This document shows positions 11,224 through 62,270 of a stretch of DNA of 64,000 nt, piece by piece. The first letter of the stretch is position 1; every line of letters starts with the position of its first letter. The notes beneath the pieces were generated by a model, which saw nothing but the letters and a program-made list of their open reading frames with translations, made no database searches and was not told the origin of the DNA. A program made the translations under genes and the position numbers. The stretch spans positions 16,999 to 80,998 of the forward strand of contig JBHGBE010000006.1 of assembly GCA_041946855.1 (NCBI GenBank), written 5' to 3'. This DNA is from Phycisphaerae bacterium (GTDB lineage Bacteria > Planctomycetota > Phycisphaerae > SM23-33).

Positions 11224-12855
11224 TTAGCGCCGGACCTGTTCGCCGATGGTCACTCGCATCTGCCTGGCCTCGGCGGCGGCCTTCGTGCGCGGGAACCGGG
11301 CGATGATGTCGTCCAGGAAGACGACGGCCTTGGCGTTCATGCCGTTGGATATGTACAGCTTGGCCAGCTCCATCTCCTGGCTCGCGTCGAACTCCGGGTC
11401 GACCGACAAGGCGGGGCGAGTCGTCACCGCGGCCAGCGGCTGCCGGGTCTCCAGCGTGATGACCCCGTCCACGGCCGGCGGGTCAAACAGGAACATCTGC
11501 TGGAGGCTGACCTTCGCCGGCTCCTTCATCCTGGCGATCTCGGCCTGCTTGTTCTTGATGGCGGAGGCCGCGGTCTGACCGCCGGCGTAGATGGCCTGCG
11601 CCTGGCCTTTCAGCAGGGCGATGGCCGCCTTCTCCTTGTCCACCATTGCGTTGTAGTCGGCGGCGGAATACAGCCTCGGATCGATGCTGTCGATGTTGTT
11701 CCGGTGGACCTCGATCTCGCCGAGGATCCGCCAGTAGTTTCCGGCCAGGTCGCTGAAGTTCTGCTGAAGGTTGTCCAGTTCCTGTTGAGCGGCGGCGAGC
11801 TTTCGCTGGTATTCCGCCTGGTCCTCGGCCTGCTGGCGGATGGCTGAGGCCATCTTCTCGTATCCCTGCGCGAAGCGCCCGGTCCTGGCCCAATCGCCGC
11901 GGGACTCATCGATGATCCGCCTTGTCTCGTCGGGCAGTGGCACCGGCGGCTTCTGGGCGTCGTACCATGCCAGTAGCTGTCCCACGTCGCTCTGCACGCC
12001 GGGGTCGGAGTGCCCCAGATCCAGGGCCTTCACCAACGCGGCCATGGCGGCGGGATAGTCGCCTCTCTTGGCCCAGCAGTAGCCGCAGACGGCCCAGCCG
12101 ATGGGATTGCCCTCATCCACCTGCGTGAGTGTCCTGGCGGCGTCGAGGGCCATCCGCGGCCGGCCTAGTTCAAGCATCCTCCGGACGAACGCGCGGTTCA
12201 TCGCGACGTTGCGAGGGGCGATTGCGTATGCGCGGTTGTAGGCGGCAAGGACGGTGGCGATGTCGCACTTCTCGATCAGTTCGATCATCTGCCGAAGGAC
12301 CGGATCATCAACGCTGACAGCGGCGGGCATGGAGGCGCGATGGATCGTCCGTTTGACGGCCGGGGCGTCAGGCCGTTGCTCGGGGGCAGGCTGCGGGGGA
12401 CGCACCGCGAGTTCGCCCACGCCGGCGGCGGGGGTCGGAGCGGGCGAAGGGAATAAGGGCACGGCCGGGATGGCAGGGGCGGCGGGCGTCGGCACAGCCA
12501 CGCGGTCAGCAAGCTGCGCCGCGGCGTTCCCATCGGCCACTGGCCTACTGTCTGCGGAGCGCGCACCTGCGGCCGTTGGAGACTGCGGCATGGCAAGTTG
12601 CGGCTGTGCAGCCGGCAGGACATCGTGATTGGGCGTGAGCGCCGCCGCGGGTTGATGCACGTCCCGCGCCGGCAGGATGTGCCAGAAGAGGACGACGGCC
12701 GCGACGGCCATCAACAGCGCCGTCAGGAAAAGCGCCATGATCCTTGGCAGCACCACGCGCTCGAAGCGCGCGAACTTGTAGGCGTCTTCATCGCCCGCGG
12801 TGCTCGCTTCCGCCGTAGCATCCGGATCGTTCATGGCGGGACTTCCGGTCATCAC
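11224..12855 (-). CDS. Membrane-anchored protein: Pro/Ala-rich linker, TPR-like domain (paralogous to 9612-11033), C-terminal coiled coil
   Basis: N-terminal TM helix IMALFLTALLMAVAAVVLFW. The shared domain ...RAFVRRMLELGRPRMA...GWAVCGYCWAKRGD...LLAWYDAQKP aligns with ...RAYIRKMVDLGSPEMA...AWAVIAYVSARKGE...LIAWYDSKP. A 4-nt ATGA overlap with the upstream gene indicates translational coupling. Confidence 0.6.
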   Translation of the reverse strand: MMTGSPAMNDPDATAEASTAGDEDAYKFARFERVVLPRIMALFLTALLMAVAAVVLFWHILPARDVHQPAAALTPNHDVLPAAQPQLAMPQSPTAAGARSADSRPVADGNAAAQLADRVAVPTPAAPAIPAVPLFPSPAPTPAAGVGELAVRPPQPAPEQRPDAPAVKRTIHRASMPAAVSVDDPVLRQMIELIEKCDIATVLAAYNRAYAIAPRNVAMNRAFVRRMLELGRPRMALDAARTLTQVDEGNPIGWAVCGYCWAKRGDYPAAMAALVKALDLGHSDPGVQSDVGQLLAWYDAQKPPVPLPDETRRIIDESRGDWARTGRFAQGYEKMASAIRQQAEDQAEYQRKLAAAQQELDNLQQNFSDLAGNYWRILGEIEVHRNNIDSIDPRLYSAADYNAMVDKEKAAIALLKGQAQAIYAGGQTAASAIKNKQAEIARMKEPAKVSLQQMFLFDPPAVDGVITLETRQPLAAVTTRPALSVDPEFDASQEMELAKLYISNGMNAKAVVFLDDIIARFPRTKAAAEARQMRVTIGEQVRR

Positions 12856-15883: not shown

Positions 15884-17085
15884 GCCAGACCCTCGCCATC
15901 TTCGTCGATCAATACCGCGCCCTGAAGGCGCGCAAGATGTTCTGGATCGTCCTGGCCATCTCCGGGCTGGTGGTCCTCGCGTTCGGCGCGATCGGCATAG
16001 ACGACAAGGGCATGACCATCCTGGGCTGGTCCATCGGGCTGGAGATGCTCAGCACGAGCCACATGACGCGGGCGTTCTTCTACAAGTCGCTGTTCAGCGG
16101 GCTGGGGATCGGGTTCTGGCTGAGCTGGCTGGCGGCGCTGCTGGCGCTGATCTCCACCGGCGGCATCTTCCCGGAGTTCATCTCGAGCGGGGCCATCGAC
16201 CTGACGCTCTCCAAGCCCATCAGCCGCATCCGCCTGTTCCTGACGCAGTACGTCGCGGGCCTGCTCTTCGTGACGCTCCAGGTGGGCATCTTCTGCTGTG
16301 CTAGCTTCCTGGTGCTGGGTCTGCGGGGGGGAGTGTGGGAACCGTGGCTGTTCCTGGCGGTGCCGCTGGTGGTGGCCTTCTTCAGCTTCCTGTTCTCGGT
16401 ATGCGTGCTCTTGGGCGTGTGGACGAGGTCTACCGTCGCCGCCATCCTGCTGACGCTGCTGTTCTGGTTCCTCCTGTACATCCTGAACACGGCCGACGCG
16501 GGCCTGTTGGTGTTCAAGGCGTCCATGGAGCAAGAGGCCGCCAGGTCCGACAAGCAGCTCCGGCGGGTCCAGGAGCAGATCCATCAGGCGGAAGGAGGGG
16601 AAGACGCGAGGACAGGAGGACAGGAAGAGCGGAGGACAGGATCATCGCATCCGGCTAGTCAGGCCTCCCTTCCTCCAGTCGTCCCGTCCTCCCGTCCAGC
16701 GTCGGCAGCCTCCGCCAGGCGCACGTCGGGCCCATCCGAGAGCATGGATTCCCTCAAGGCCAGGGAAGGCCGGCTCCAGCAGGAGCGGGATGAGCGTCTC
16801 GCTACCGCGGCCGCACTGGGCAAATGGAATCGCGTCATCTACTGGATCAAGACCTTCCTGCCCAAGACTTCCGAGACAGTCGCCCTGCTGGAGCGCGCGA
16901 TGGTAACGAAGGCCGACATGCCCGATCTTCCAAGAGCCAGTCCCGACGCGCCGGATCGCGGCGCCGAGGATGTGACCAAGGAGCTACAGGGCCGCTCGGT
17001 GGCCTGGGTGCTGGGGACGAGCCTGGCCTTCGAGGCCGTCATCCTCGCGCTGGCCTGTTTCATCTTCTGTAGACGCGACTACTGA
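15880..17085 (+). CDS. ABC-2 family transporter permease with long low-complexity cytoplasmic insert
   Basis: ATGA overlap with the preceding ATPase gene and multiple hydrophobic TM segments. The insert contains a GGAGGACA octamer tandem array at 16607-16642. Confidence 0.7.
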   Translation: MSQTLAIFVDQYRALKARKMFWIVLAISGLVVLAFGAIGIDDKGMTILGWSIGLEMLSTSHMTRAFFYKSLFSGLGIGFWLSWLAALLALISTGGIFPEFISSGAIDLTLSKPISRIRLFLTQYVAGLLFVTLQVGIFCCASFLVLGLRGGVWEPWLFLAVPLVVAFFSFLFSVCVLLGVWTRSTVAAILLTLLFWFLLYILNTADAGLLVFKASMEQEAARSDKQLRRVQEQIHQAEGGEDARTGGQEERRTGSSHPASQASLPPVVPSSRPASAASARRTSGPSESMDSLKAREGRLQQERDERLATAAALGKWNRVIYWIKTFLPKTSETVALLERAMVTKADMPDLPRASPDAPDRGAEDVTKELQGRSVAWVLGTSLAFEAVILALACFIFCRRDY

Positions 17086-20882: not shown

Positions 20883-23213
20883 ATGGCGATCGGATTCTGG
20901 ACTGAAGGCGTCTCAAAGACCTCAATCGGGCGCTTCGGCGGATATCGCGACGACTGTATCCCCTATGATGACGGCTACCTGACCTGCGGGGCGACGGCCG
21001 TCGACGTGTTCCTTGAGCGCCGCGACGACCTCAAGGAGGACCTGGGCCACTACCTGCTGCCGCCCAACTTCCGCCAGAAGACCCGTTCGACCTGGACGCT
21101 CAAGCGGTACGACTTCCGCCTGGCCAGCGGCGTCTCCCATTCGACTGTCTTCCGTTCACTGCTGTTCCCCGGCTTCCTGCACCGCGTCAAGACCGGCCGG
21201 TTCGAGTACTACTGGCGGCTGCGGAACTACGGCGCGACGGACCTGGTCCTTCCCCTGGCGGACGGCCTCAAGCACGTCCGCGGGACGGCCGGCTACGACC
21301 GCCAGCGAGACGGCGACCTGACGCGCCCGTGGGTGCTGTTCTACTTCTCCAGGTCGGCCATGCCGTTCGACTACCCGATGCTCCTGGTCTTCGACAAGCA
21401 GCCGGAGAAGATAGAGGTGTGGACGCACGAGTACCTCAAGGTCCACTTCAAGGACAGGAAGGCGACGGTAGTTCAGGTTCACCCGTTCGGGGCCCAGCGC
21501 CTCGACAAGGAGGCGACCAAGGCGTGGGCGGCCGGCCTGCCGGAGGATGTCGCCGCCAAGATGGATTTCTGGGCGGCCGCCGCGATGAACTACCCCGTGG
21601 CGTGCAAAGAGACCTACCGCGTCGATGAGAAGCAGGGCGTTGTCCGCATCCGCGACGAGTACAGCTACGAGCGGTCGAAGTGCGCATGGCCCGTCAAGCC
21701 TGTCGAGCTTGCGCCTCTGCCGCCGATCCTTGCCAACGCGCGGCACTGCGGCTATCCGGTCAAGATGAGCGGCAAGCTTCTGGAAAAGCTCTGCCCGACG
21801 TTCATGGGCTGGTACGAGGCCGTGCCGGGCTCGACCATCGAGTACGAGCTTCCGCTGTCGCGGTTCCGCAACCACGTGCTGGCGCCGATGATGGTCAAGA
21901 ACGACCCGACGGCCGACGAGGTGACCGCTAAGCTCACCGAATACCTGGAAAGCGGTGATTACCGCACGTTCGGCGGCGACGACCATTACGACCCCAGCAC
22001 CTCGCTCGACTCGCTGCACGACCTGCGAATCATGGCCTGGGCGCTCTGGTCAATCGATCCCGAGAAGCGCGCCAAGGTGCTGGAGTTGCTCACACGCGGC
22101 CTGGGCAACTTCGACTTCAAGGAGTTCCTCCGCTACAGGACGCCCGTCACCGGCACGCCGTGGGCCAGGCACAAGACGATCTTTGATTACCTGGGCGAGA
22201 TCGACTACGACATGGAGTGGTACAACGGCATGAACCTGGCCGGCCTGTGGGCGTGGGCGTATTTCGGCCAGGACCCCAAGGCCGATGAGTTCCTTCGCCG
22301 GCACTGGACGCTGGCCCAGGAGATCAACGCGTACTCGCTGGCCTACACCGACTGGGCGCAGCAGACCGCGTGGACATGCTGCCGCGGCGAGGCGACCTGG
22401 CTGGACGGCATCAACTACGCATACGAGGGGATGCTCGGCTACGCGGCCATGGCCCGCCGGCTGGGCAAGCGAAAGGATGCGCAGCTCGGCGACTATCTGG
22501 CGGCAAAGTGCGAGGCGTTCATCCACAACTGCTGGATGGGCAGCTCGTACGCGCAGGAGTTCTTCGCGTACGAAGGCGCGAAGCCCGGCTGCATGGGCGG
22601 GTTTTACGAGGGCCGCGGGCCGCGTTACGGCGAGGCCTCCGGCTGGCCGTGCGGCACGTACTCGTACTTCGTCCGCGAGGTCTTCATGCTCCTGAGCGAC
22701 CTGGGCTTGCAGGACGCGCTCCGGCAGGAGCTCGACAACTTCACGCGCAACTTCCCCAACTGGCGGACCGACCCGTACAGCTACGGCAAGGCCACGAACT
22801 ATCCGGGCAGCGATTACAGGCGGACCGTGCATCACTACTCGCTGGATCCGCGCCTGGCGGTCTGCGCGTTGGTCCTTGGCGAGGATGCGTCGAGTCTGCT
22901 CAAGCTCCAAGGCGCGCCGCTGACGGGGCCGGTGCTGGAGACGATGCTCGTGGCGATGGCCCCGCGCGTCCTCGTGCCGCGCGATGTGACGTTCCAGGGC
23001 TGCGTCTGGGACGCCGCCGCAAGGAAGCTTACCGTCACGCTGGCCGGCAAGGGCAGAACCACCATCGGGCTGGCCCACAGCGATGCGCCCTGCGCCGTGA
23101 GGGCAGACAAGCTGCTGACGACGGGCCAATCCCCCGGCCGGATGTGGTTCACGATCAAGCTGGCGGGAAGAACGGAGATTGTCTTTGAGTTCGGCTCCGG
23201 GCCTTCAACTTGA
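20883..23213 (+). CDS. Large cytoplasmic hypothetical protein (777 aa), possibly carbohydrate-active
   Basis: Start MAIGFWTEG with GAGAGG upstream and no signal peptide. Trp/Tyr-rich C-terminal half; no confident family assignment. Confidence 0.55.
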   Translation: MAIGFWTEGVSKTSIGRFGGYRDDCIPYDDGYLTCGATAVDVFLERRDDLKEDLGHYLLPPNFRQKTRSTWTLKRYDFRLASGVSHSTVFRSLLFPGFLHRVKTGRFEYYWRLRNYGATDLVLPLADGLKHVRGTAGYDRQRDGDLTRPWVLFYFSRSAMPFDYPMLLVFDKQPEKIEVWTHEYLKVHFKDRKATVVQVHPFGAQRLDKEATKAWAAGLPEDVAAKMDFWAAAAMNYPVACKETYRVDEKQGVVRIRDEYSYERSKCAWPVKPVELAPLPPILANARHCGYPVKMSGKLLEKLCPTFMGWYEAVPGSTIEYELPLSRFRNHVLAPMMVKNDPTADEVTAKLTEYLESGDYRTFGGDDHYDPSTSLDSLHDLRIMAWALWSIDPEKRAKVLELLTRGLGNFDFKEFLRYRTPVTGTPWARHKTIFDYLGEIDYDMEWYNGMNLAGLWAWAYFGQDPKADEFLRRHWTLAQEINAYSLAYTDWAQQTAWTCCRGEATWLDGINYAYEGMLGYAAMARRLGKRKDAQLGDYLAAKCEAFIHNCWMGSSYAQEFFAYEGAKPGCMGGFYEGRGPRYGEASGWPCGTYSYFVREVFMLLSDLGLQDALRQELDNFTRNFPNWRTDPYSYGKATNYPGSDYRRTVHHYSLDPRLAVCALVLGEDASSLLKLQGAPLTGPVLETMLVAMAPRVLVPRDVTFQGCVWDAAARKLTVTLAGKGRTTIGLAHSDAPCAVRADKLLTTGQSPGRMWFTIKLAGRTEIVFEFGSGPST

Positions 23214-23217
23214 GAAT

Positions 23218-23277
23218 CGAACATTGAGTGTTGATTATTGAATATTCAATATTCAATCAGCAATGCTCAATGTTCAA
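23218..23277. repeat. AT-rich heptad/palindromic element (family 2, copy D): TTGAATATTCAATATTCAAT...CAATGCTCAATGTTCAAG
   Basis: Lies between convergent stops at 23213 and 23320. Contains the perfect palindrome TTGAATATTCAA and a CAATGYT tandem heptamer. It is related to the element at 35688-35798. Confidence 0.45.
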
Positions 23278-23319
23278 GTTTCAGATTGCCTATGATGGCC
23301 CGATTGACTGTTCACGCGG

Positions 23320-25715: not shown

Positions 25716-25887
25716 GCCGACGCTGTCTCCATCTCCGGATCAGGCGGACAAGGCGCGTCTCACGCGGCGACTCATAGCCGCATCGCGGGCACTTGGCCTT
25801 GCGGCACCCGCCGAACACCGCGCATGCCGAGCACGCCCTGACGGCCGCCTCTTCGTCGAACTCATTTCCGCAGAAAGGGCATCTCAT
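25696..25887 (-). CDS. Small zinc-ribbon protein (63 aa), translationally coupled to feoB
   Basis: MRCPFCGNEF...CSACAVFGGCRKAKCPRCGYES: two CxxC pairs followed by an Arg-rich tail. Its ATG overlaps the feoB TGA (ATGA), and its 3' end overlaps the feoA start by 20 nt. Confidence 0.45.
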   Translation of the reverse strand: MRCPFCGNEFDEEAAVRACSACAVFGGCRKAKCPRCGYESPRETRLVRLIRRWRQRRHDKSTC

Positions 25888-27992
25888 AGGTGTATTCCCA
25901 GATTGCCCAGGGCGTCGAGCGCCAGGTTCAGCACGAACCCGACGCCGAATGCGAACACCGCGATGAACGCGGAGACCAGCAGCGTCATCCTCAGGCCGCG
26001 CTCCTTCCTCATCACCAGGAACTGCGCGATGCACGGTAGGAACAGCGTCAACGTGACGGCCGCCACTACGAGCTGGTTGCCCATCAGGAGGTCCTTCGTG
26101 TGCAGGTCGTACAGGCCGGCGATGCCGTAGTCGCGCCTGAAGAAGCCGAACAGGAACGCCTGTGCGGCCTGGCCGGGCAGGCCCAGCGCCTTGACTATCG
26201 GCGTCAGGCCGTTGATGACGATCTGGAACACGCCGCCCTCCGGCAGCAGGCCCCACCAGTCCAGCCGGCAGACCCAGATGATCGCGCTGGCGATGATGAA
26301 CAGCGGCAGCACCTCCTTGAAATACCAGACCATCCTCGTGTAGGTCTTGACCAGCACGTTTCCCACGCGCGGCAGGCGGAGAGGCGGAAGCTCCATGTAG
26401 AATGCCGGGCGCTCGCCAGGCATGAACTTCGCCGCCAAGAGCCCTGCCGCCAGGAACACGGCGGCTATCACGCCGGCCCAGACCGCCATCGCGGCCGGGT
26501 GGCCCTCCAGCAAGCCCAGTATCACGCCGATCTGCGCCGAGCACGGGACCGCCAGCGCCAGCAGGAACGTCGCGATGACCCGCTCGCGGCGTGTCTCGAG
26601 CGTCCGCGTGACCATCGTGGCCATGGTGTCGCAACCGAAGCCCAGCACCATCGGGATGACCGCACGGCCGTTGAGGCCGATCCGCTTGAACACGCGGTCA
26701 ACGAGCATCGCCAGCCGCGGCAGGTAGCCGCTGTCCTCCAGTATCGAGAACGCCAGGAAGAACGTGCCGACGATTGGGAAGACAATGGCGATGGCGTAGC
26801 GCAGGCCCAGCGTGATGATGCCGTAGTCGCCGCCGAAGAGGTCCCGCAGGATCGGCCAGGGGATGGTCGCGGCGGCCGTGCGGTCGATCCAGCCGCTGAC
26901 GTAGTCCTTGAACAGGCCCTCCAGTCCGTTGACCATCACGCCCGCGCCCAGGCCGCCGACGAACTTGTACAGCCCCAGGTAGAGCACCGCAAACAGTAGC
27001 GGCAGGCCCGTCCACGGGCTCATGCACAGCTCGCTCAGACGGTCGCGGAGCGTGTGCGAGCGGCGTGGGGGCAGCACGGCCGTGTCCTTCAGTATGCGGT
27101 CCACGCGGCCCTTGACGGCCATCGCCGTGTGATAGTGCGGCGTGTGGCGGAGGGCCATCGTCACGTCCCAGACGAGGCCCGACACGGCCGCCGCGTGGTC
27201 GTCGCCCGCCTCCTCGCGGAGCAACTGGCGCATCTCGTGATCGCCGTGGATGAGCAGGATCGCCCGCGTCCGCCGGCCGATCCCGTCGCCGTCGCCGACG
27301 TGCGGCTGGATCGCGGCGATGGCCTTTTCGATTACCGGGCCGTAATCGACCTTGAAGGAATTGCGGAATGCGGAATGCGGATTGCGGATTCCAGGAGGCG
27401 CAGACTGACTCCCAGGCAATCCGCATTCCGCATTCCGCATTCCGCAATCAGACCTGATTCTTCCGGCAAGTTCCGCCAATCCCTTGCCCGACGTGGCCAC
27501 GGTCGGCACGACTGGTATTCCGAGGGCCTTTTCCAGCGCGGCGCAGTCGATGCGGATGCCGGCCTCCTGGGCCTCGTCCCACATGTTCAGGGCCAGCACC
27601 ACTGGCAGGCCGGCCTCGACCAACTGAAGCGTCAAGCCCAGCATCCGCTCGATGCTCTTTGCGTCGATGACGTGTACGACGGCCGCGGGCGTCCGCCGCA
27701 GCAGGATCGACCGCGCCACTCGCTCCTCATCCGTGATCGGCAGCAGCGAGTACATGCCGGGCGTGTCGATGACCTCGGCGTCCAGCAGCCTGGAGCGGCC
27801 GCGTGATACCTCGACGGTCGTGCCGGGGTAATTGGATACCGTGACGTACCGGCCGGTAAGCCGGTTGAATAGCGCGCTCTTGCCGACGTTCGGGTTGCCG
27901 ACGATGAAGATGGCGCCCGCGCCAGCCTCGCTTGGAGGCCGGTGGGAATCGCCCGCGCCTTCCTTTTCAACAACCGCACCGATACGGCCCAT
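25884..27992 (-). CDS. feoB: Ferrous iron transporter FeoB
   Basis: G-domain motifs GNPNVGKSALFN, DTPG, NMWD, then a polytopic membrane domain. Start at MGRIGAVV with GGAG upstream. Confidence 0.85.
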   Translation of the reverse strand: MGRIGAVVEKEGAGDSHRPPSEAGAGAIFIVGNPNVGKSALFNRLTGRYVTVSNYPGTTVEVSRGRSRLLDAEVIDTPGMYSLLPITDEERVARSILLRRTPAAVVHVIDAKSIERMLGLTLQLVEAGLPVVLALNMWDEAQEAGIRIDCAALEKALGIPVVPTVATSGKGLAELAGRIRSDCGMRNAECGLPGSQSAPPGIRNPHSAFRNSFKVDYGPVIEKAIAAIQPHVGDGDGIGRRTRAILLIHGDHEMRQLLREEAGDDHAAAVSGLVWDVTMALRHTPHYHTAMAVKGRVDRILKDTAVLPPRRSHTLRDRLSELCMSPWTGLPLLFAVLYLGLYKFVGGLGAGVMVNGLEGLFKDYVSGWIDRTAAATIPWPILRDLFGGDYGIITLGLRYAIAIVFPIVGTFFLAFSILEDSGYLPRLAMLVDRVFKRIGLNGRAVIPMVLGFGCDTMATMVTRTLETRRERVIATFLLALAVPCSAQIGVILGLLEGHPAAMAVWAGVIAAVFLAAGLLAAKFMPGERPAFYMELPPLRLPRVGNVLVKTYTRMVWYFKEVLPLFIIASAIIWVCRLDWWGLLPEGGVFQIVINGLTPIVKALGLPGQAAQAFLFGFFRRDYGIAGLYDLHTKDLLMGNQLVVAAVTLTLFLPCIAQFLVMRKERGLRMTLLVSAFIAVFAFGVGFVLNLALDALGNLGIHL
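27356..27449. repeat. In-frame palindromic heptamer element inside feoB (GCGGAAT/GCGGATT arrays as 33-bp inverted arms)
   Basis: Left arm AATTGCGGAATGCGGAATGCGGATTGCGGATTCC is separated by a 22-nt spacer from right arm GGCAATCCGCATTCCGCATTCCGCATTCCGCAATC. It falls between the FeoB G-domain and helical domain. The repeat tracts encode DCGMRNAECG and PGIRNPHSAFRNS within the linker ...RSDCGMRNAECGLPGSQSAPPGIRNPHSAFRNS.... Confidence 0.6.
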
Positions 27993-28042
27993 CTTCGCAC
28001 TAACTCCGCAAGGCCCGCTCGTTTCCGCCGCGAGCCCTGAAC

Positions 28043-28579
28043 TCATTGGGTGGATTTGACGTCGGCGGGCCTGCGCATCTCGCGAACAGCGCCGGCGACG
28101 CACTTGCGGCACTCCCGCGGCCCTCGCGCCAGCCCGGACGTGCAATGCCGCCTGAATGCCTCCGTCCAGCTTTCGCCCGCGCGGGGGCAGTCGGCGACGA
28201 ACTCGCCGAAGAGCCTCAGCCGCTCCAGCACGGCCTCATCGACCGCGTGCTCCATCCGGCATGCGTTGGCCTCCGCCTCCTGGGCGTCGAGGCCCAGCAC
28301 GTCGCACAGGAAGCGCCGGATGTCGTAGTGGCGGCGGCTGACCTGCTCGGCCAGCTCCCCGCCGCGGTCGGTCAGCGTGACGAACTGATAGGGGTCGTAG
28401 TTGACCAGGCCGCGGGACGCCAGCGTCTTGAGCGCGGCCGTTACGGCCGGCATGCCAACCTTCAACTCGCGGGCGATGTCGCGGACCCTGGCGACGCGGT
28501 TCCGCCGCACCAGGAACAGGATCGCCTCGAGGTAGTCCTCCATTGAGGCCGTCAGACGCTTGGTCGCTGTTGCGTTCAT
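28043..28579 (-). CDS. DtxR/MntR family metal-dependent transcriptional regulator with Cys-rich C-terminus
   Basis: N-terminal wHTH MEDYLEAILFLVRRNRVARVRDIARELKVGMPAVTAALKTLASRGLV and a metal-binding region. It sits directly upstream of feoB on the same strand. Confidence 0.8.
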   Translation of the reverse strand: MNATATKRLTASMEDYLEAILFLVRRNRVARVRDIARELKVGMPAVTAALKTLASRGLVNYDPYQFVTLTDRGGELAEQVSRRHYDIRRFLCDVLGLDAQEAEANACRMEHAVDEAVLERLRLFGEFVADCPRAGESWTEAFRRHCTSGLARGPRECRKCVAGAVREMRRPADVKSTQ

Positions 28580-30592: not shown

Positions 30593-31051
30593 ATGACCAG
30601 GTTCCGTGGTGACGTTGAGTTGCTGCCGCCCCGCGCGCGGTACTTCACGCCGCAGCAGGCGGGCCGCGCGCTGGTGCTCGTGCGGAGGATCGTCCAGGAC
30701 ATCGTCGGCGGCTACGGCCGGCTGGTGGATCTCCAGGAGACGCTCGAGGCGCTCCAGACCCGCCAGTCGCGGCAGGAGTGCGAGGCCGTCCGGCGCGAGC
30801 TGATCGCCACGATGGAGACGCTCCAGTCATGCCTGGAGGAGCTCGAAGAGGTCGGTGTGGAGCTTGTCGATTGGGCGCTGGGGATCGTCGAGTTCCCATG
30901 CCTCTGGAGCGGGCGCGAGATCCGCCTGACCTGGCAGCACGGCCAGGGCGGCGTCAGCCATTGGCGCGAGATCGGCGAAAGCCCCGCCTCCCGCCAGCCC
31001 ATCAGCACGCTCCTCATGGAGCAGATGGCGGGGGTCGGCGCGAGGAGATGA
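30593..31051 (+). CDS. DUF2203 family protein
   Basis: MTRFRGDVELLPPRARYFT... with the characteristic ...ELVDWALGIVEFPCLW... motif; AGGAG 7 nt upstream. Confidence 0.6.
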   Translation: MTRFRGDVELLPPRARYFTPQQAGRALVLVRRIVQDIVGGYGRLVDLQETLEALQTRQSRQECEAVRRELIATMETLQSCLEELEEVGVELVDWALGIVEFPCLWSGREIRLTWQHGQGGVSHWREIGESPASRQPISTLLMEQMAGVGARR

Positions 31052-31064
31052 GCACACGGAAACG

Positions 31065-31122
31065 GCAGAAGCGCCTGACGGCAAGCCAATCACGATGCTG
31101 GCTTGCCGTTAGGCGCTTCTGC
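31065..31122. terminator. 24-bp-stem hairpin between the convergent DUF2203 and flotillin genes (candidate bidirectional terminator)
   Basis: GCAGAAGCGCCTGACGGCAAGCCA-(10 nt)-TGGCTTGCCGTTAGGCGCTTCTGC, one mismatch, starting 14 nt after the stop at 31051. Confidence 0.5.
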
Positions 31123-31142
31123 CGTCTCCTCAGTTGGTAATT

Positions 31143-31186
31143 CGTCAATCGCAAATCGTCAATCGCAAATCGTCAATCGCCAATCT
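31143..31186. repeat. Tandem 14-nt (2x7) array TCGTCAATCGCAAA x3 abutting the flotillin stop codon
   Basis: Seen directly in sequence; reverse complement GATTGCGATTGACGA, GCGATTG heptamer family. Confidence 0.55.
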
Positions 31187-33499: not shown

Positions 33500-33804
33500 G
33501 GCTGCGCTCCCTATGTCTTGTCCGGCCCGGAGTTGACCGCCCATCGGGGCCGGCTGAGCAAGAGGATAATCACGCCCGCCGGCGGTTACAAGTCGCAAGA
33601 TGGACGATTTGCGACATGCCCCGAATGAGGGACCAGGGGTGAGCGACTAGCGACCAGGGGGTCTTGCGGGCGGGCTGGCTATTGAAGATTCGTCGGCCCC
33701 ATGGACCTGTATAATGGGTTTAACACAAACAGTGTCGGACGGTCCGTGCCAACTGCCCGCTAGCGCGGTCCGGCGTGGCGAGTTGAGAAAACGAGGGCTA
33801 TGAC

Positions 33805-37205: not shown

Positions 37206-37212
37206 AACCAAA

Positions 37213-37278
37213 AGGCGGAATGTAGAAGGCAGAAGGATAGAAGAAGGCAGAAGGCACAATGCAGAATTCAGAAGGCAC
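37213..37278. repeat. GCAGAAG/GGCGGAATG heptamer array immediately upstream of, and running into, the next gene's start
   Basis: AGGCGGAATGTAGAAGGCAGAAGGATAGAAGAAGGCAGAAGGCACAATGCAGAATTCAGAAGGCACAATG. Its imperfect reverse complement (CATTCTGCCTCTTGCATTTTGCC) lies in the signal-peptide coding region at 37326-37350. Confidence 0.5.
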
Positions 37279-52140: not shown

Positions 52141-52992
52141 ATGACAGAGCTCAACGCCCACGAAGTCGTCAAGAACGCCTACGCCGAGGTCGCCCGCAGG
52201 CAGTCATCCTGCTGCGGACCGAGCAAGTCCTGTTGCGACGACAGAAAGCCCTACACCGTGCCAGATCATCCCGTGCCGGAGTCGGAGCTGGGCCTGTCGT
52301 GCGGGAACCCGCTGGCCTTCGGGCACATCAAGCCCGGCGACGTGGTGCTGGACCTGGGCAGCGGGGCCGGCAAGGATGTCTTCCTGGCCGCTCAGAAGGT
52401 GGGCGACGCCGGCCGTGCCATCGGCGTGGACATGACGCCCGAGATGCTCGTCCTGGCCCGCAAGAACGCCGTCAAGTTCTTCGCGACCACCGGCCTGGCC
52501 AACGTCGAGTTCCGCCAGGGGCAGATCGAGTCCCTGCCCGTGGACGATGGCTCGGTGGACGTGGTGATCTCCAACTGCGTCATCAACCTCTCGCCCGACA
52601 AGCCGCGGGTCTTCCGCGAGGTGCATCGCGTCCTCAAGTCCGGCGGCCGAATGGTCGTCAGCGACATCGTGCTCAACCGGCCGCTGCCGGAGGCCGCCCG
52701 CGAAGACGCCGACCTGTACTCTTCCTGCATCGGCGGGGCGCTGCTGCGCGATGACTACCTCGCGGCCGTCCGCGCCGCCGGGTTCGTCAGAGTGGAAGTG
52801 CTGTCCGACACGACGTACGGTGCCTCGCGTGCGAACGTGGCGTGCAACGATCCCATCCTCGCCGCCGCGACCGGCGGGAACGACTCGGCCTGTGGCGACA
52901 CGGCCGGCGACACGTCCGCTGGCGACAAGGCCGCCCCGGCCGATGCCTTGGCCGGCGTCGCGGCCAGCATCACCGTACTGGCCGTGAAATGA
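52141..52992 (+). CDS. arsM: Arsenite S-adenosylmethionine methyltransferase
   Basis: N-terminal Cys pairs SSCCGPSKSCCDD, SAM motif VLDLGSGAGKDVF, catalytic Cys in VISNCVINL. Confidence 0.85.
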   Translation: MTELNAHEVVKNAYAEVARRQSSCCGPSKSCCDDRKPYTVPDHPVPESELGLSCGNPLAFGHIKPGDVVLDLGSGAGKDVFLAAQKVGDAGRAIGVDMTPEMLVLARKNAVKFFATTGLANVEFRQGQIESLPVDDGSVDVVISNCVINLSPDKPRVFREVHRVLKSGGRMVVSDIVLNRPLPEAAREDADLYSSCIGGALLRDDYLAAVRAAGFVRVEVLSDTTYGASRANVACNDPILAAATGGNDSACGDTAGDTSAGDKAAPADALAGVAASITVLAVK

Positions 52993-53276
52993 TGGCCGTG
53001 TCGCTCGTAGTGTGCTCATGGATTGCACATACCGGACAACGCAGGCAATGTTAAAAGGCGTGTGTCGGGAAACATGCGCAGAAAAAACAGCATACACAAG
53101 ATGTTAATCTGGAGGATTCAAGCGTTTCCAGCTTGTGATGTAACATCTTGTGATATAATAGGTTAGATGTAATAAGCGAACAGCCGAAAATCGCCCGCGC
53201 CGAAAAAGGGTCGTTTTGCAGGACAAACCCATTTTTTGAAAATCCGTCAATTTGGCAGGTCGTGCGGGCGGCGGGC
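52993..53276. other. Strongly AT-rich (~40% GC) intergenic island with a 12-bp inverted repeat CACAAGATGTTA / TAACATCTTGTG
   Basis: Lies between the convergent arsM and top6B stops, in sharp compositional contrast to the ~67% GC flanks. Confidence 0.5.
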
Positions 53277-54959
53277 CTACATTTTCCGGCTGTGTTCCAG
53301 GACGTGCTTCAGATCGGCACAGACTTTGTTCACCTGGCGGTCCTTCAGTTCCAGGATGTCGCGCAGCGCCTCGCCGATCGCGGGGATGTATTTCTCGATG
53401 TAGGACCGTTTCTTCATCTCATCGTGGATGCGGACGGTCTTACGGATGTGAGTGCCGAGCTTCCGGCCGCACTCCTGGAGCGCCAGCCGGATTTCCTTCA
53501 GGATTTCCGGGTAGGACGCGATGGCCTCCTTCGACTCGCTGGTGAACGGCACCCAGACGCTGGCCATGTGGACGACCACGGTCAGCGGTCCCTCGGGCAG
53601 AGCGCCGCGAGCCTGCGTGATGCCGTACTGCCGCCAGTTGAGCGTGACCACCGACTTGTAGATGGAGCACGCCGACTGCTGATATAGCAGCGGCACGCGG
53701 TTGGCGAAGCGGATGAGCTTGGCGAGTTCGGAAGTCTCCTCTTCGTCATCGGCGGCGACGGCCGGCGCGGCGGCGGGGGCCTCGGCGCCGTTGCCGTTGG
53801 CCTCCCGGTCCTGATCTTCCGGCGAGTTGCCGGCCGTCTTCGCGCCGGCGGACTTCGCGCCGGCCGTTGCGGTCTGGGAATCTTCCGGCTGCTCCGGTTT
53901 GCCGTATGCGATGGCGGCCTCGATGATGAACGGGTTTCCGCGGTAGACGGCCGGGCTGCGGCTGGTGGCCACGTAGAACTCGGCCTCGACCACCTGCTTC
54001 AGTCCGCCGATGAGCTGCTCCTCGCCGATGGGCACGACGCAGTCGGTTGATGGCGCCATGATCCGCGTCTGCTGTATCGCGTTGTAGATCGCGCGGGCCT
54101 CCTCGCCGCCCAGGCGTGATGGCCGCTGGTCGGGGGAGAGATTCGCCTTCTGGCAGACCTCCAGCGCCACGCGCGGCGAGACGCGGGAGAACTCGCTCGA
54201 CAGGAAGTGGCGGAGCGTGCGGCTGCGGCTGTCGGTGAGCATCTTGATGAGCACGCCCAGCTCGATTCCGTGCGGGTGCGGGCGGATGGCCTTTGGCGGC
54301 GGCGGCAGCGATTTGTGGCTGGCCTCGTACCTGTCCGCCCGGCTGTCGGGCGCGTGGTAGACCAGCGTGACGTGCGGGTTGGCGATGGCCGTCTGCTGGA
54401 GGTAGTCATCCACGCTCTGCCGGCCGCGCTGATACTTGGCCTCAAGCTCGATCTCGACGCGCGTGCCGTGGGGCACGTCCCAATCGACCTGGTCTTCCTT
54501 GATGACGTCGGGCGTGTTGCGGCTGGTGTCGATCTGGAGCTCGCAGTAGAGGGCCTTGCCTCGCGGGTTGTGTCGCGAGGTGATGCGGACCGGCCGGCCG
54601 GTGGTCAGCAGGCCGTACATGCCCGCGGCCGAGATGCCGATGCCCTGCTGGCCGCGGCTCATCCGCAGGCGGTGGAACTTCGAGCCGTAGAGCAAGCGGC
54701 CGAAGATGTTGGGGATTTCCTTGCGGACGATGCCGGGGCCGTTGTCCTGGACGATGACCTTGAAGTGCGTCTCGTCGAGCTGCTCGATCCAGATCTCGAC
54801 GGCCGGCAGGATGCCGGCCTCCTCGCAGGCGTCGAGCGAGTTGTCGACGGCCTCCTTCACGGTGGTCAGGAGCGCCTTGCGGGGATTGTCGAAGCCGAGC
54901 AGGTGGCGGTTCTTGGCGAAGAACTCGCTGACGGAGATGTTCCGCTGTGCCTTGGCCAT
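53277..54959 (-). CDS. top6B: DNA topoisomerase VI subunit B (alternative upstream ATG at 55206-55208 would give a 644-aa ORF)
   Basis: GHKL/Bergerat ATPase motifs (EAVDNSLDA, DNGPGI, GQQGIGISAAGMYG), H2TH and transducer domains. Start chosen at MAKAQRNISVSEFF to match the archaeal Top6B N-terminus (…SPAEFF…). The upstream 250 nt are packed with heptamer repeats. Confidence 0.75.
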   Translation of the reverse strand: MAKAQRNISVSEFFAKNRHLLGFDNPRKALLTTVKEAVDNSLDACEEAGILPAVEIWIEQLDETHFKVIVQDNGPGIVRKEIPNIFGRLLYGSKFHRLRMSRGQQGIGISAAGMYGLLTTGRPVRITSRHNPRGKALYCELQIDTSRNTPDVIKEDQVDWDVPHGTRVEIELEAKYQRGRQSVDDYLQQTAIANPHVTLVYHAPDSRADRYEASHKSLPPPPKAIRPHPHGIELGVLIKMLTDSRSRTLRHFLSSEFSRVSPRVALEVCQKANLSPDQRPSRLGGEEARAIYNAIQQTRIMAPSTDCVVPIGEEQLIGGLKQVVEAEFYVATSRSPAVYRGNPFIIEAAIAYGKPEQPEDSQTATAGAKSAGAKTAGNSPEDQDREANGNGAEAPAAAPAVAADDEEETSELAKLIRFANRVPLLYQQSACSIYKSVVTLNWRQYGITQARGALPEGPLTVVVHMASVWVPFTSESKEAIASYPEILKEIRLALQECGRKLGTHIRKTVRIHDEMKKRSYIEKYIPAIGEALRDILELKDRQVNKVCADLKHVLEHSRKM

Positions 54960-54997
54960 CTGCTCGGCCGTGGCGAAGGGGCGCTTGGCCGGCAGGT

Positions 54998-55122
54998 CGG
55001 ATTGTGGATGGCGGATTGCGGATTGCGGATTGATCGCCTGGACGGCCGGCGGAGCTTTCGCGGCGGGCTTGCCCGGCTTGGCCGGAGGCGATTTCGGATT
55101 TCGGATTTCGGATTTCGGATTG
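54998..55122. repeat. Two tandem CGGATT(G/T) heptamer arrays (x5 and x4.5) in the top6B / GT2 divergent region
   Basis: TCGGATTGTGGATGGCGGATTGCGGATTGCGGATTGA (54998-55034) and CGATTTCGGATTTCGGATTTCGGATTTCGGATTG (55089-55122). The unit is identical to the feoB-internal element. Confidence 0.6.
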
Positions 55123-55346
55123 CCCGCCGCAAGCGCTTTGGCGGCCCTCTTGTCGGCCCTTGGTCCCTCGTCGCTAGTCCCTAGTCGCTTACTTGGCTTC
55201 TTGGCCATCCGTGGCGTCCCTGATGTTGAAGGTCTGCACATCAACTTCCAGCGTAATCTATGCGGTTTGCACCCGGCCGTCAAGCGATGGCAATTGCGGT
55301 CCGCCTGGAGGTTTTCACGCCCGCCGGTGCGCGGTATCATGTGCTA

Positions 55347-56078
55347 ATGGCCGAAGGCCCCAGCGCGAAACCTGCCGCGCCATTCGACGTGTCGCTCAGC
55401 GTGTTCTTCCCCTGCTACAACGAGCAGGACAACGTCGAGCGGGTGACGCGCGCGGCCGTCGAGGCGCTCGACCGCCTGGTGAGGGACTGGGAGATCATCA
55501 TCGTCGATGATGGCTCGAAGGACCACACGGGCAAGATCGCCGACCGTCTTGCCGCCGAGGACAAGCGAATCCGCGTCGTCCATCACAGCCCCAACAAAGG
55601 CTACGGCATGGCGCTGCGGAGCGGCTTCGCGGCCGCGACCAAGCCGCACGTCTTCTACACCGACGGCGACGGCCAGTTCGACATGAACGAACTGGAAAAG
55701 CTCCTGGAGAGAATGGGCCAGGCCGACATCATCAGCGGCTACCGGCGCAACCGCCAGGACAACCTGCTCCGCAGGATCAACGCGAAGTGCTGGGGCTGGC
55801 TGGTGCAGCGGATGCTCAAGTTCCGCTGCCGCGACGTCGACAGCGCGTTCAAGCTATACAAGCGGGAGATGTTCGACCGCATGACGCTCAAGTCGACCGG
55901 GGCGCTTATCGACGCGGAGGTGCTGGCGCGGGCCACGCGGCTGGGGTACACGATAGCGACCGTGCCGGTCACGCACCTGCCGCGCAAGGCGGGCAAGCAG
56001 ACCGGGGCCAACATCAGGGTCATCCTCCGGGCGTTCAAGGAACTGCTCAAGCTTCGCAAGGACATCATGCGTTCGTAG
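55347..56078 (+). CDS. Glycosyltransferase family 2 (polyprenol-phosphate sugar transferase-like)
   Basis: VSLSVFFPCYNEQDNV, IIVDDGSKD, DGDGQ (DxD-type) motifs. Confidence 0.8.
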   Translation: MAEGPSAKPAAPFDVSLSVFFPCYNEQDNVERVTRAAVEALDRLVRDWEIIIVDDGSKDHTGKIADRLAAEDKRIRVVHHSPNKGYGMALRSGFAAATKPHVFYTDGDGQFDMNELEKLLERMGQADIISGYRRNRQDNLLRRINAKCWGWLVQRMLKFRCRDVDSAFKLYKREMFDRMTLKSTGALIDAEVLARATRLGYTIATVPVTHLPRKAGKQTGANIRVILRAFKELLKLRKDIMRS

Positions 56079-58443: not shown

Positions 58444-58448
58444 TATCA

Positions 58449-58493
58449 ATTGCAGATTGTAGATTGCAGATTGCAGATTGGCATACTGCAATC
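58449..58493. repeat. GCAGATT heptamer array (x4) filling the permease-ATPase intergenic gap
   Basis: ATTGCAGATTGTAGATTGCAGATTGCAGATTG plus inverted partner GCATACTGCAATC, within the 53 nt between stop 58497 and ATG 58443. Confidence 0.6.
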
Positions 58494-62184: not shown

Positions 62185-62270
62185 GGACTGGGGGCGAGCG
62201 ACTGGCGACTAGGAGGACCGAACGCTTGGCCACTGACCTCGATCGCCTAGTCGCTAGTCCCTCATCCGTC
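62185..62270. repeat. GCGACTR heptamer / GGGACTAGCGACTAGG palindromic element (family 3) in the pyrE / lepB divergent region
   Basis: AGGGACTGGGGGCGAGCGACTGGCGACTAGG...CCTAGTCGCTAGTCCCT. Related copies at 33629-33662 (GAGCGACTAGCGACCAGGGGG) and 55160-55195 (CGTCGCTAGTCCCTAGTCGC). Confidence 0.5.

Follow-up and report, generated by a model that had tools for sequence, protein, structure and literature searches.

Heptanucleotide repeats, probably translated, in the N-terminal tail of topoisomerase VI subunit B from a Phycisphaerae bacterium

Introduction

Which of two in-frame ATG codons opens the gene for subunit B of DNA topoisomerase VI (Top6B) in a Phycisphaerae bacterium, and what are the runs of repeated heptanucleotides that lie between them? 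The gene, top6B, is part of a 64-kb stretch of contig JBHGBE010000006.1, the whole of which was analysed and is referred to here as the window. The upstream candidate, ATG1 (55206-55208), and the internal one (54957-54959), which becomes the codon of Met84 if translation begins at ATG1, are both read on the minus strand. An earlier note on this DNA placed the two codons, and their common frame, correctly, and offered two alternatives. Either translation starts upstream and the repeats code for an N-terminal tail that is basic and of low complexity, or the arrays sit in the promoter and 5′ untranslated region (UTR) shared with a divergent GT2 glycosyltransferase gene.

The answer that we consider likely is that Top6B starts at ATG1, that a disordered tail rich in K, A and P precedes its GHKL core, and that three heptamer arrays, produced by a lineage-specific, genome-wide process acting on 7-nt units, are translated within that tail. 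The arrays would then be translated passenger simple sequence repeats (SSRs), one local case of a genome-wide 7-base excess, and the present evidence calls for no new regulatory mechanism.

The start codon of Top6B

If translation begins at ATG1, how does the N-terminus compare with those of homologues? From ATG1 to the stop codon the coding sequence (CDS; 53277-55208, minus strand) specifies 643 amino acids, an extent backed by Pfam and NCBI matches. The product is identical (100%) to the 643-residue NCBI protein P0001, ‘DNA topoisomerase VI subunit B’ of a Phycisphaerae bacterium. Pfam recognizes HATPase_c (1.4e-09), HATPase_c_3 and Topo-VIb_trans (1.2e-53), that is, a GHKL ATPase followed by a transducer domain. 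We compared it with its 120 best Top6B homologues, which, with self excluded, are 65-77% identical. In 113 of the 120, a tail of 30-215 residues (median 74) stands ahead of the core, mostly beginning MAKK, MAKR or MAKS; ATG1 opens the sequence MAKKPSKRLG. These tails then run into a conserved (Y/F)ATAE(S/T/Q)MAKAQRxISVSEFF.

The conservation does not begin at the internal ATG, which reads MAKAQRNISVSEFF. A81, E82 and M84 are invariant in an alignment of 40 planctomycetal sequences. The M. mazei Top6B structure 2q2e_B (E=3.4e-145) aligns over query residues 80-633, with TAEQMAKAQ paired to IAEELAKKQ at the start and Leu in place of Met84. AlphaFold2 (AF2), supplied with the 40-sequence alignment, predicts the first helix at residues 81-89, so that Met84 (54957-54959) appears as a conserved methionine inside that helix and not as a start codon. 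The reading frame of the tail leads to the same place: MAKKPS…, the inter-array segment PPAKPGKPAAKAPPAVQ and the segment DLPAKRPFATAEQ all share one frame, in which the G+C content at third codon positions (GC3) reaches 13/13 over 54960-54997 and 0.84 in the inter-array DNA.

Candidate promoters lie further upstream. A sigma-70-like site for top6B (55255-55283, minus strand; TTGACG, a 17-nt spacer and TAGATT) stands about 45 nt upstream of ATG1. Its counterpart on the plus strand (55312-55340; TTTTCA, a 17-nt spacer and TATCAT) faces the divergent GT2 gene (55348-56078, plus strand), whose probable start is MAEGPSAKP and whose Glycos_transf_2 domain begins, by Pfam, at residue 47 of the longest open reading frame (ORF). 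Both sites, one for each direction, fall within the 140 nt that separate ATG1 from the start of the GT2 gene. They are consensus matches only, and 54800-55500 contains no others (2 found against 0.1 expected).

In all, six lines of evidence, from sequence comparison and structure prediction, support ATG1 as the start of translation and Met84 as an internal residue. The homologue tails, the conservation, the structural alignment, the helix and the promoter-like sites bear out the first alternative of the earlier note. The second is not supported, since the two promoter-like sites are found upstream of ATG1 and the conservation extends upstream of Met84. With ATG1 as the start, all three arrays lie within the CDS, downstream of the candidate promoter and of the start codon, and would therefore be translated.

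Several points weigh against this assignment. The evidence for it is comparative throughout. Six of the 120 homologues are annotated with a MAKxQR start, which gene calling or truncation may explain. At 0.69 the GC3 of 55122-55208 is uninformative, and an open frame of 83 codons would, by our estimate, arise by chance at the given GC content in roughly 12% of cases.

Could Met84 nevertheless be the start, with the arrays in a long 5′ UTR and serving a post-transcriptional regulator as binding sites or spacers, after the manner of the Beggiatoaceae TAACTGA repeats or the Nostoc heptamers? The six short annotations would agree with this, as would the archaeal Top6B start, which lies only about four residues before the equivalent of residue 80. 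Three other arrays of the window (58448-58482, 37212-37277 and 535-571) end 0-30 nt before start codons, and in Nostoc heptamer repeats near start codons influenced the expression of recF and recO (bioRxiv 10.1101/2022.06.06.494920). The top6B arrays, however, are not so placed. The array at 58448-58482 ends a few nucleotides upstream of a start codon; those of top6B are found 20-210 nt past ATG1 and stand 38 nt or more ahead of Met84, array 1 ending 38 nt short of the Met84 ATG. Nor does the RNA of the top6B 5′ region fold significantly better than chance (z=-0.76; of 100 shuffles, 22 do at least equally well). Moreover, the ATAE conservation and the first helix reach upstream of Met84, three non-array segments of typical tail composition share the MAKK frame, and the promoter-like sites lie upstream of ATG1. 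We regard a start at Met84 as very unlikely.

For annotation, the start of top6B is then set at 55208, and an apparent regulatory region of 390 nt disappears.

Heptamer arrays in a basic tail

What do the arrays contribute to the protein? Array 1 (54998-55032) consists of five CGGATTG units (CAATCCG in the sense of the mRNA), three perfect and two degenerate, and encodes NPQSAIRHPQS; Tandem Repeats Finder reports it with period 7, 5.0 copies and 85% matches. Array 2 (55090-55121) is built of perfect GATTTCG units, equivalent to the CGGATTT register (AATCCGA in mRNA sense), with period 7, 4.6 copies and 100% matches, and encodes NPKSEIRNPKS. Array 3 (55163-55189) is made of GTCCCTA/GTCGCTA units (TAGCGAC/TAGGGAC in mRNA sense) and encodes approximately KRLGTSDEG; the program finds it at 55163-55186 either with period 7 (3.4 copies, 82%) or, alternatively, with period 14 (1.9 copies, 92%). 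All three hold at least three head-to-tail copies of a 7-nt unit.

The dimer CGGATTKCGGATT, with at most one mismatch allowed, occurs eight times in the window, against 0.18 expected; none of 100 shuffles reaches eight, and the occurrences are confined to top6B and feoB. The single word GCGACTAG is not significantly enriched in the window (4 found, 1.38 expected). It is a member of a real family of heptamer arrays, with further copies at 33628-33660 and 62190-62262, and is of interest only within such arrays. The two CGGATT heptamer arrays and the GCGACTA motif that the earlier note described in 54960-55346 are thus borne out by Tandem Repeats Finder and by the dimer count, and the peptides NPKSEIRNPKS and IRHPQS were quoted correctly.

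The arrays are embedded, in frame, in a basic tail of residues 1-83 (54960-55208, minus strand), supported by the homologue tails and by AF2, which assigns residues 1-85 a pLDDT below 50 and no secondary structure. How well do they fit their surroundings? The tails of homologues have a median of 68% K/R/A/P and a median net charge of about +16. The 46 residues of the present tail that lie outside the arrays are 76% K/R/A/P and resemble those tails, whereas the 31 residues encoded by the arrays (KRLGTSDEG, NPKSEIRNPKS and NPQSAIRHPQS) are 35% K/R/A/P. The array peptides are compositionally odd insertions into an otherwise typical disordered tail.

A tail rich in K, A and P and reminiscent of histone H1 is nearly universal in planctomycetal Top6B, and the solved archaeal structures lack one. 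The tail may bind DNA. The archaeal and plant topoisomerase VI B subunits (M. mazei 2q2e, S. shibatae 1mu5/2zbk) share the GHKL ATPase and transducer domains of the present protein, from which they differ in that the planctomycetal tail and, in the present protein, an insertion at residues 439-492 have been added. This insertion is of low complexity and predicted to be disordered.

By direct reading of the sequence, the units of these arrays are free of stop codons on both strands. Because 7 mod 3 = 1, each frame of a heptamer array gives the same 7-residue repeat, circularly permuted. Since the units are free of stops and three of them span all codon phases, reading through an array is harmless, provided that its total length keeps the frame.

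An excess of period 7 across the window

Are the arrays peculiar to top6B? We scanned the 64-kb window for periodicity, with a sliding window and periods 4-13, against composition-preserving shuffles. Period 7 gave seven strong regions; every other period gave none, as did the shuffles, and a second threshold gave the same result, for what is 64 kb of the genome only. With the addition of weaker arrays, from Tandem Repeats Finder and direct reading, there are about 13, a density of roughly one per 5-6 kb. About eight of the 13 lie in spacers and five in two CDSs, top6B and feoB, in a small sample with predicted gene starts. CGGATTK units occur within the window in feoB and top6B, and TAGCGAC/TAGGGAC units recur at 33.6k, 55.2k and 62.2k.

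The case of feoB parallels that of top6B. Here an inverted pair of CGGAATG/CGGATTG arrays (27358-27394 and 27414-27452), inside the feoB ORF (25884-28235, minus strand), is translated in frame as …CGMRNAECGLPGSQSAPPGIRNPHSAFRN…. The pair sits precisely where the G domain gives way to the cytosolic helical domain: by Pfam, FeoB_N covers residues 109-258 and FeoB_Cyto residues 298-385, and the PDB alignments of the G domain end at …GKGLAELAGRI. As RNA the pair is predicted to form a mid-gene hairpin of -69.9 kcal/mol. Since it is translated in frame between domains, this genome tolerates coding heptamer arrays at protein linkers and tails.

How might such arrays arise and survive in a conserved gene? 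The arrays of top6B would be local products of a genome-wide process that makes tandem 7-nt repeats, of which the simplest source would be replication slippage favouring 7-nt units, as proposed for other bacteria. They could persist in top6B because the tail would accept almost any hydrophilic sequence, because the units encode no stop in any frame and because the net inserted length keeps the frame. We infer that they originated by slippage and have no dedicated regulatory role. The tail of Top6B and the interdomain linker of FeoB would be natural examples of non-triplet repeats accommodated in coding DNA.

Arrays in relatives

If the process is lineage-specific, what is found at the same site in relatives? 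Eight GTDB loci at 50-60% identity, together with the contig of P0002, the closest homologue (77%), show no period-7 array in about 140 kb. A scan of metagenomes, anchored on the conserved ISVSEFFAKNRH-coding DNA, gave 120 top6B loci totalling 818 kb. Strong period-7 arrays, six in all (GTCGAGT, GCGGATY, GTAGCCG, GGATGAG and CAACTGA), are present on only three of these loci, and the Top6B tail is without a strong array in all 120. Strong arrays were likewise not seen in about 110 of the 113 homologue tails. No conspecific top6B is present among the 120 loci, the best nucleotide identity being 81%; the best non-self protein is 77% identical. The earlier note had held that orthologues lacking any repeats at this position would count against it. 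This is largely what is found, with the exception of locus L010 and probably of the homologue P0041.

These exceptions deserve attention. Locus L010 (P0064; 65% identity, 66.5% GC) carries a degenerate array, CAATCGA, AGATCAC, AAATCAA, AAATCAA, GAATCGG, directly before HATAE, and also an inverted pair (12041-12133) of the same CGGATTT/CGGATTG units as in the window. P0041 has the peptide QSEIESRKSKI before ATAE, which looks heptamer-derived, at the protein level only. Elsewhere, an array of CGGATTK/GCGGATY-type units is found on a Phycisphaerae contig, L051 (10750-10785), and an array of four CAACTGA units on another, L108 (5725-5760), one base from the TAACTGA of Beggiatoa.

The heptamer process thus appears to be patchy and lineage-specific and, to judge from the sequences, the junction between the tail and the core of Top6B seems to have been colonised more than once where the process is active. 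Heptamer-like arrays at this junction in L010 and, probably, in P0041, neither of them among the closest relatives, weigh against a wholly passive role of the site and hint that it may be more than passively permissive. Its repeated colonisation may reflect either mere permissiveness or a hotspot.

Beyond relatives, a protein search with NPKSEIR/NPQSAIR gave 157 matches. Among the matches listed, nearly all are short hypothetical ORFs, and the named sources include Acidobacteriota, Bordetella hinzii, Stagnimonas, Verrucomicrobia, Chitinophaga, Desulfobulbaceae and Sumerlaeia. Because the matches span many phyla, GCGGATT-type arrays are a recurrent bacterial SSR and no planctomycete invention. 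More than 150 short database ORFs come from the same units; peptides such as NPKSEIRNPKS can, as Top6B illustrates, belong to conserved proteins and not just to spurious ORFs. Many of the NPQSAIR/NPKSEIR ORFs are labelled by JGI as ‘major type 1 subunit fimbrin (pilin)’, apparently a propagated mis-annotation.

Within the CDS of a GT2 glycosyltransferase of [Pasteurella] aerogenes (P0125, P0137) lie at least 5.5 NPQSAIR repeats, encoded by 16 or more heptamer units. The tract follows a conserved N-terminal GT2 motif and is plausibly a true contingency locus made from the same unit.

Are the arrays instead functional cis-elements throughout the genome, as sites for a DNA- or RNA-binding protein or as hairpins, with the copies in top6B and feoB doing double duty, for example in pausing transcription or translation between domains? 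A few related units containing AATC occur at many loci and on the other Phycisphaerae contigs L010 and L051, and arrays sit at the boundaries of genes and the junctions of domains or tails, including the tail/core junction of Top6B in at least two lineages. The inverted pairs are predicted to form very stable hairpins (-70, -47 and -38 kcal/mol). The arrays of top6B, on the other hand, are direct repeats and form no structure; across the window the units are diverse and point in no consistent direction relative to the adjacent gene. No candidate for a binding protein came to light. Beyond the units, the inverted pairs have nothing in common in their loops and flanks. Unrelated phyla carry the same units, as would be expected from a mutational bias more than from a specific system. 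A genome-wide cis-acting function is accordingly an unlikely account of these arrays.

We also considered whether the inverted pairs derive from a mobile element of the MITE type. This origin was rejected: outside the repeat units, no 9-mer is common to their loops and flanks.

Known heptamer repeats and phase variation

What precedents are there for such an excess? Heptamers are known to be over-represented in bacteria, as in the cyanobacterial STRR (Calothrix/Nostoc), the GGGAATC repeats of Xanthomonas and the GGGGA(T/C)T repeats of Nostoc (PMC4692102, citing Mrazek 2007). These repeats lie mostly in intergenic DNA, include inverted pairs and turn over rapidly between close relatives, and a slippage bias tied to the footprint of DNA polymerase has been proposed as their cause (PMC4692102). 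Occasional copies inside ORFs, at the periphery of proteins, have been described (PMC4692102, PMC4679880). The window resembles the STRR systems in its tandem 7-nt units, mostly in 2-6 copies, in the enrichment of period 7 only, and in the presence of several related units in one genome; some arrays are inverted pairs capable of forming hairpins, and copy number and sequence appear to turn over fast between relatives. It differs in that none of its units (CGGATTG/T, TAGCGAC, TTGAATA, AAGGCAG and others) is a G-tract motif, and in that five of the approximately 13 arrays are translated, in two conserved genes. The G-quadruplex explanation given for Xanthomonas and Nostoc is not applicable here, the units of the window being, by direct reading, without G-tracts.

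We found no report of heptamer repeats in Planctomycetes or Phycisphaerae, in a literature that we covered incompletely, so that their absence from it is unproven. The present results extend the heptamer SSR excess, itself poorly understood, to Planctomycetota. Of most interest, in our opinion, are three points: how dense and how varied the arrays of this lineage are, how they are accommodated in frame in FeoB and Top6B, and that planctomycetal Top6B has a conserved basic tail.

A second precedent is the TAACTGA repeat of Beggiatoaceae, cyanobacteria and Bacteroidetes, most copies of which end just upstream of start codons (MacGregor 2015, PMC4679880). The likeness lies in direct heptamers of 2-6 copies, often a few nucleotides before a start codon (compare 58448-58482), with a minority inside ORFs at the protein periphery and outside defined domains. 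There are also differences. TAACTGA has stops in all forward frames, which bar read-through in that direction, whereas the present units are stop-free in six frames. In addition, the top6B arrays are downstream of the start, and the only unit with weak similarity is the CAACTGA of the relative L108.

Might the arrays of top6B make it a contingency locus? The earlier note saw in them a classic phase-variation architecture. In such a locus slipped-strand mispairing would toggle Top6B between an ON state and either a frameshifted OFF state or, by re-initiation at Met84, a tail-less form, and the population would be heterogeneous. The architecture itself is there: the unit length is not divisible by three, the arrays are in the 5′ coding region and array 2 is a perfect tract of 4.6 units. 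In simulation, adding or removing one unit of either array puts the gene out of frame, with a stop after 111 or 257 codons, and a full-length protein is restored by paired -1/+1 changes or by changes of three units. The mechanical part of the claim, and only that part, is correct.

In H. influenzae heptanucleotide tracts of 6-38 units occur in the promoters of hmw1A and hmw2A and, as AACAACC, in a gene for a TonB-dependent receptor, and tracts within ORFs have been linked with frameshifts (PMC2651432). As in top6B, a 7-nt unit lies in or near the 5′ end of the gene, where the gain or loss of one unit alters the frame or the promoter spacing, and the NPQSAIR-encoding tract of the Pasteurella GT2 gene is long. 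The tracts of H. influenzae, however, vary between strains and belong to surface and uptake genes of host-adapted bacteria. Here the gene encodes a topoisomerase, a housekeeping enzyme outside the surface, uptake and restriction-modification classes typical of contingency loci. The perfect runs of arrays 1 and 2 are only 3 and 4.6 units, short beside the tracts of H. influenzae that have been proposed or shown to vary (PMC2651432). Arrays of the same kind in FeoB and in many spacers, across the genome, make an explanation specific to this gene unnecessary. No out-of-frame orthologue was seen among the 120 homologues and the 120 loci, and a start at Met84 would truncate a conserved helix. Phase variation of top6B is unsupported, and we think it a highly doubtful account of the locus. 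Set against the view of the arrays as mere passengers is array 2, a perfect 32-nt tract, which implies that it is recent or maintained and that some slippage must occur.

A broader reading joins these strands. The tail/core junction would be a recurrent target in Phycisphaerae in which heptamers proliferate (in the window, in L010 and probably in P0041), and the pair of arrays in the same sense would form a module tunable by slippage, part of a genome-wide regulatory layer of heptamers. We hold this to be extremely unlikely. Were it true, single-unit slips would switch topoisomerase VI off or render it tail-less, compensating slips would re-code the 19 residues between the arrays into a different basic peptide (LRPSRASPPRKLRRPSRRS), and the population would be heterogeneous in a core enzyme of DNA topology.

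Other arrays and neighbouring genes

Where else in the window are heptamers found? Two purine-rich direct arrays in spacers, one of GGAGTGG units in mRNA sense (535-571) and one of AAGGCAG units that ends at a start codon (37212-37277), span the interval from the previous stop to, or near, the next start and hold repeated Shine-Dalgarno-like GGAG/AAGG motifs. Another direct array, of 4.6 AGATTGC units (58448-58482; CAATCTG in mRNA sense), precedes the gene for an ABC-transporter ATPase. It fills about 35 nt of a 45-nt spacer and stops 5 nt short of the ATG; the gene behind it has no obvious Shine-Dalgarno sequence.

The TAGCGAC/TAGGGAC family contributes a direct array in a spacer at 33628-33660 and an inverted pair in a divergent intergenic region (62190-62215 and 62246-62262), with a predicted hairpin of -47 kcal/mol. 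Six units of CAATCGC/AAATCGT (31142-31185) form a direct array in the spacer between convergent genes, directly preceded by a long, near-perfect hairpin at about 31050-31125. Between two other convergent genes, about 12 degenerate TTGAATA/TTCAATA units make up an inverted array (about 23190-23280). This is an AT-rich palindromic hairpin of -37.6 kcal/mol, which may serve as a bidirectional terminator. The only non-heptamer repeat pair of such style in the window is of period 8: inverted arrays of four GAGGACAG units (16608-16641) and four CCTCCCGT units (16664-16697), which would fold into a hairpin of about -57 kcal/mol.

As for the surroundings of top6B (window positions 52141-56078), the gene is apparently monocistronic. 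At this locus top6A is not adjacent and no gene follows downstream on the same strand; on contig L009, that of the closest homologue, top6A is likewise not next to top6B. At its 3′ end top6B converges with a methyltransferase-like ORF of the opposite strand.

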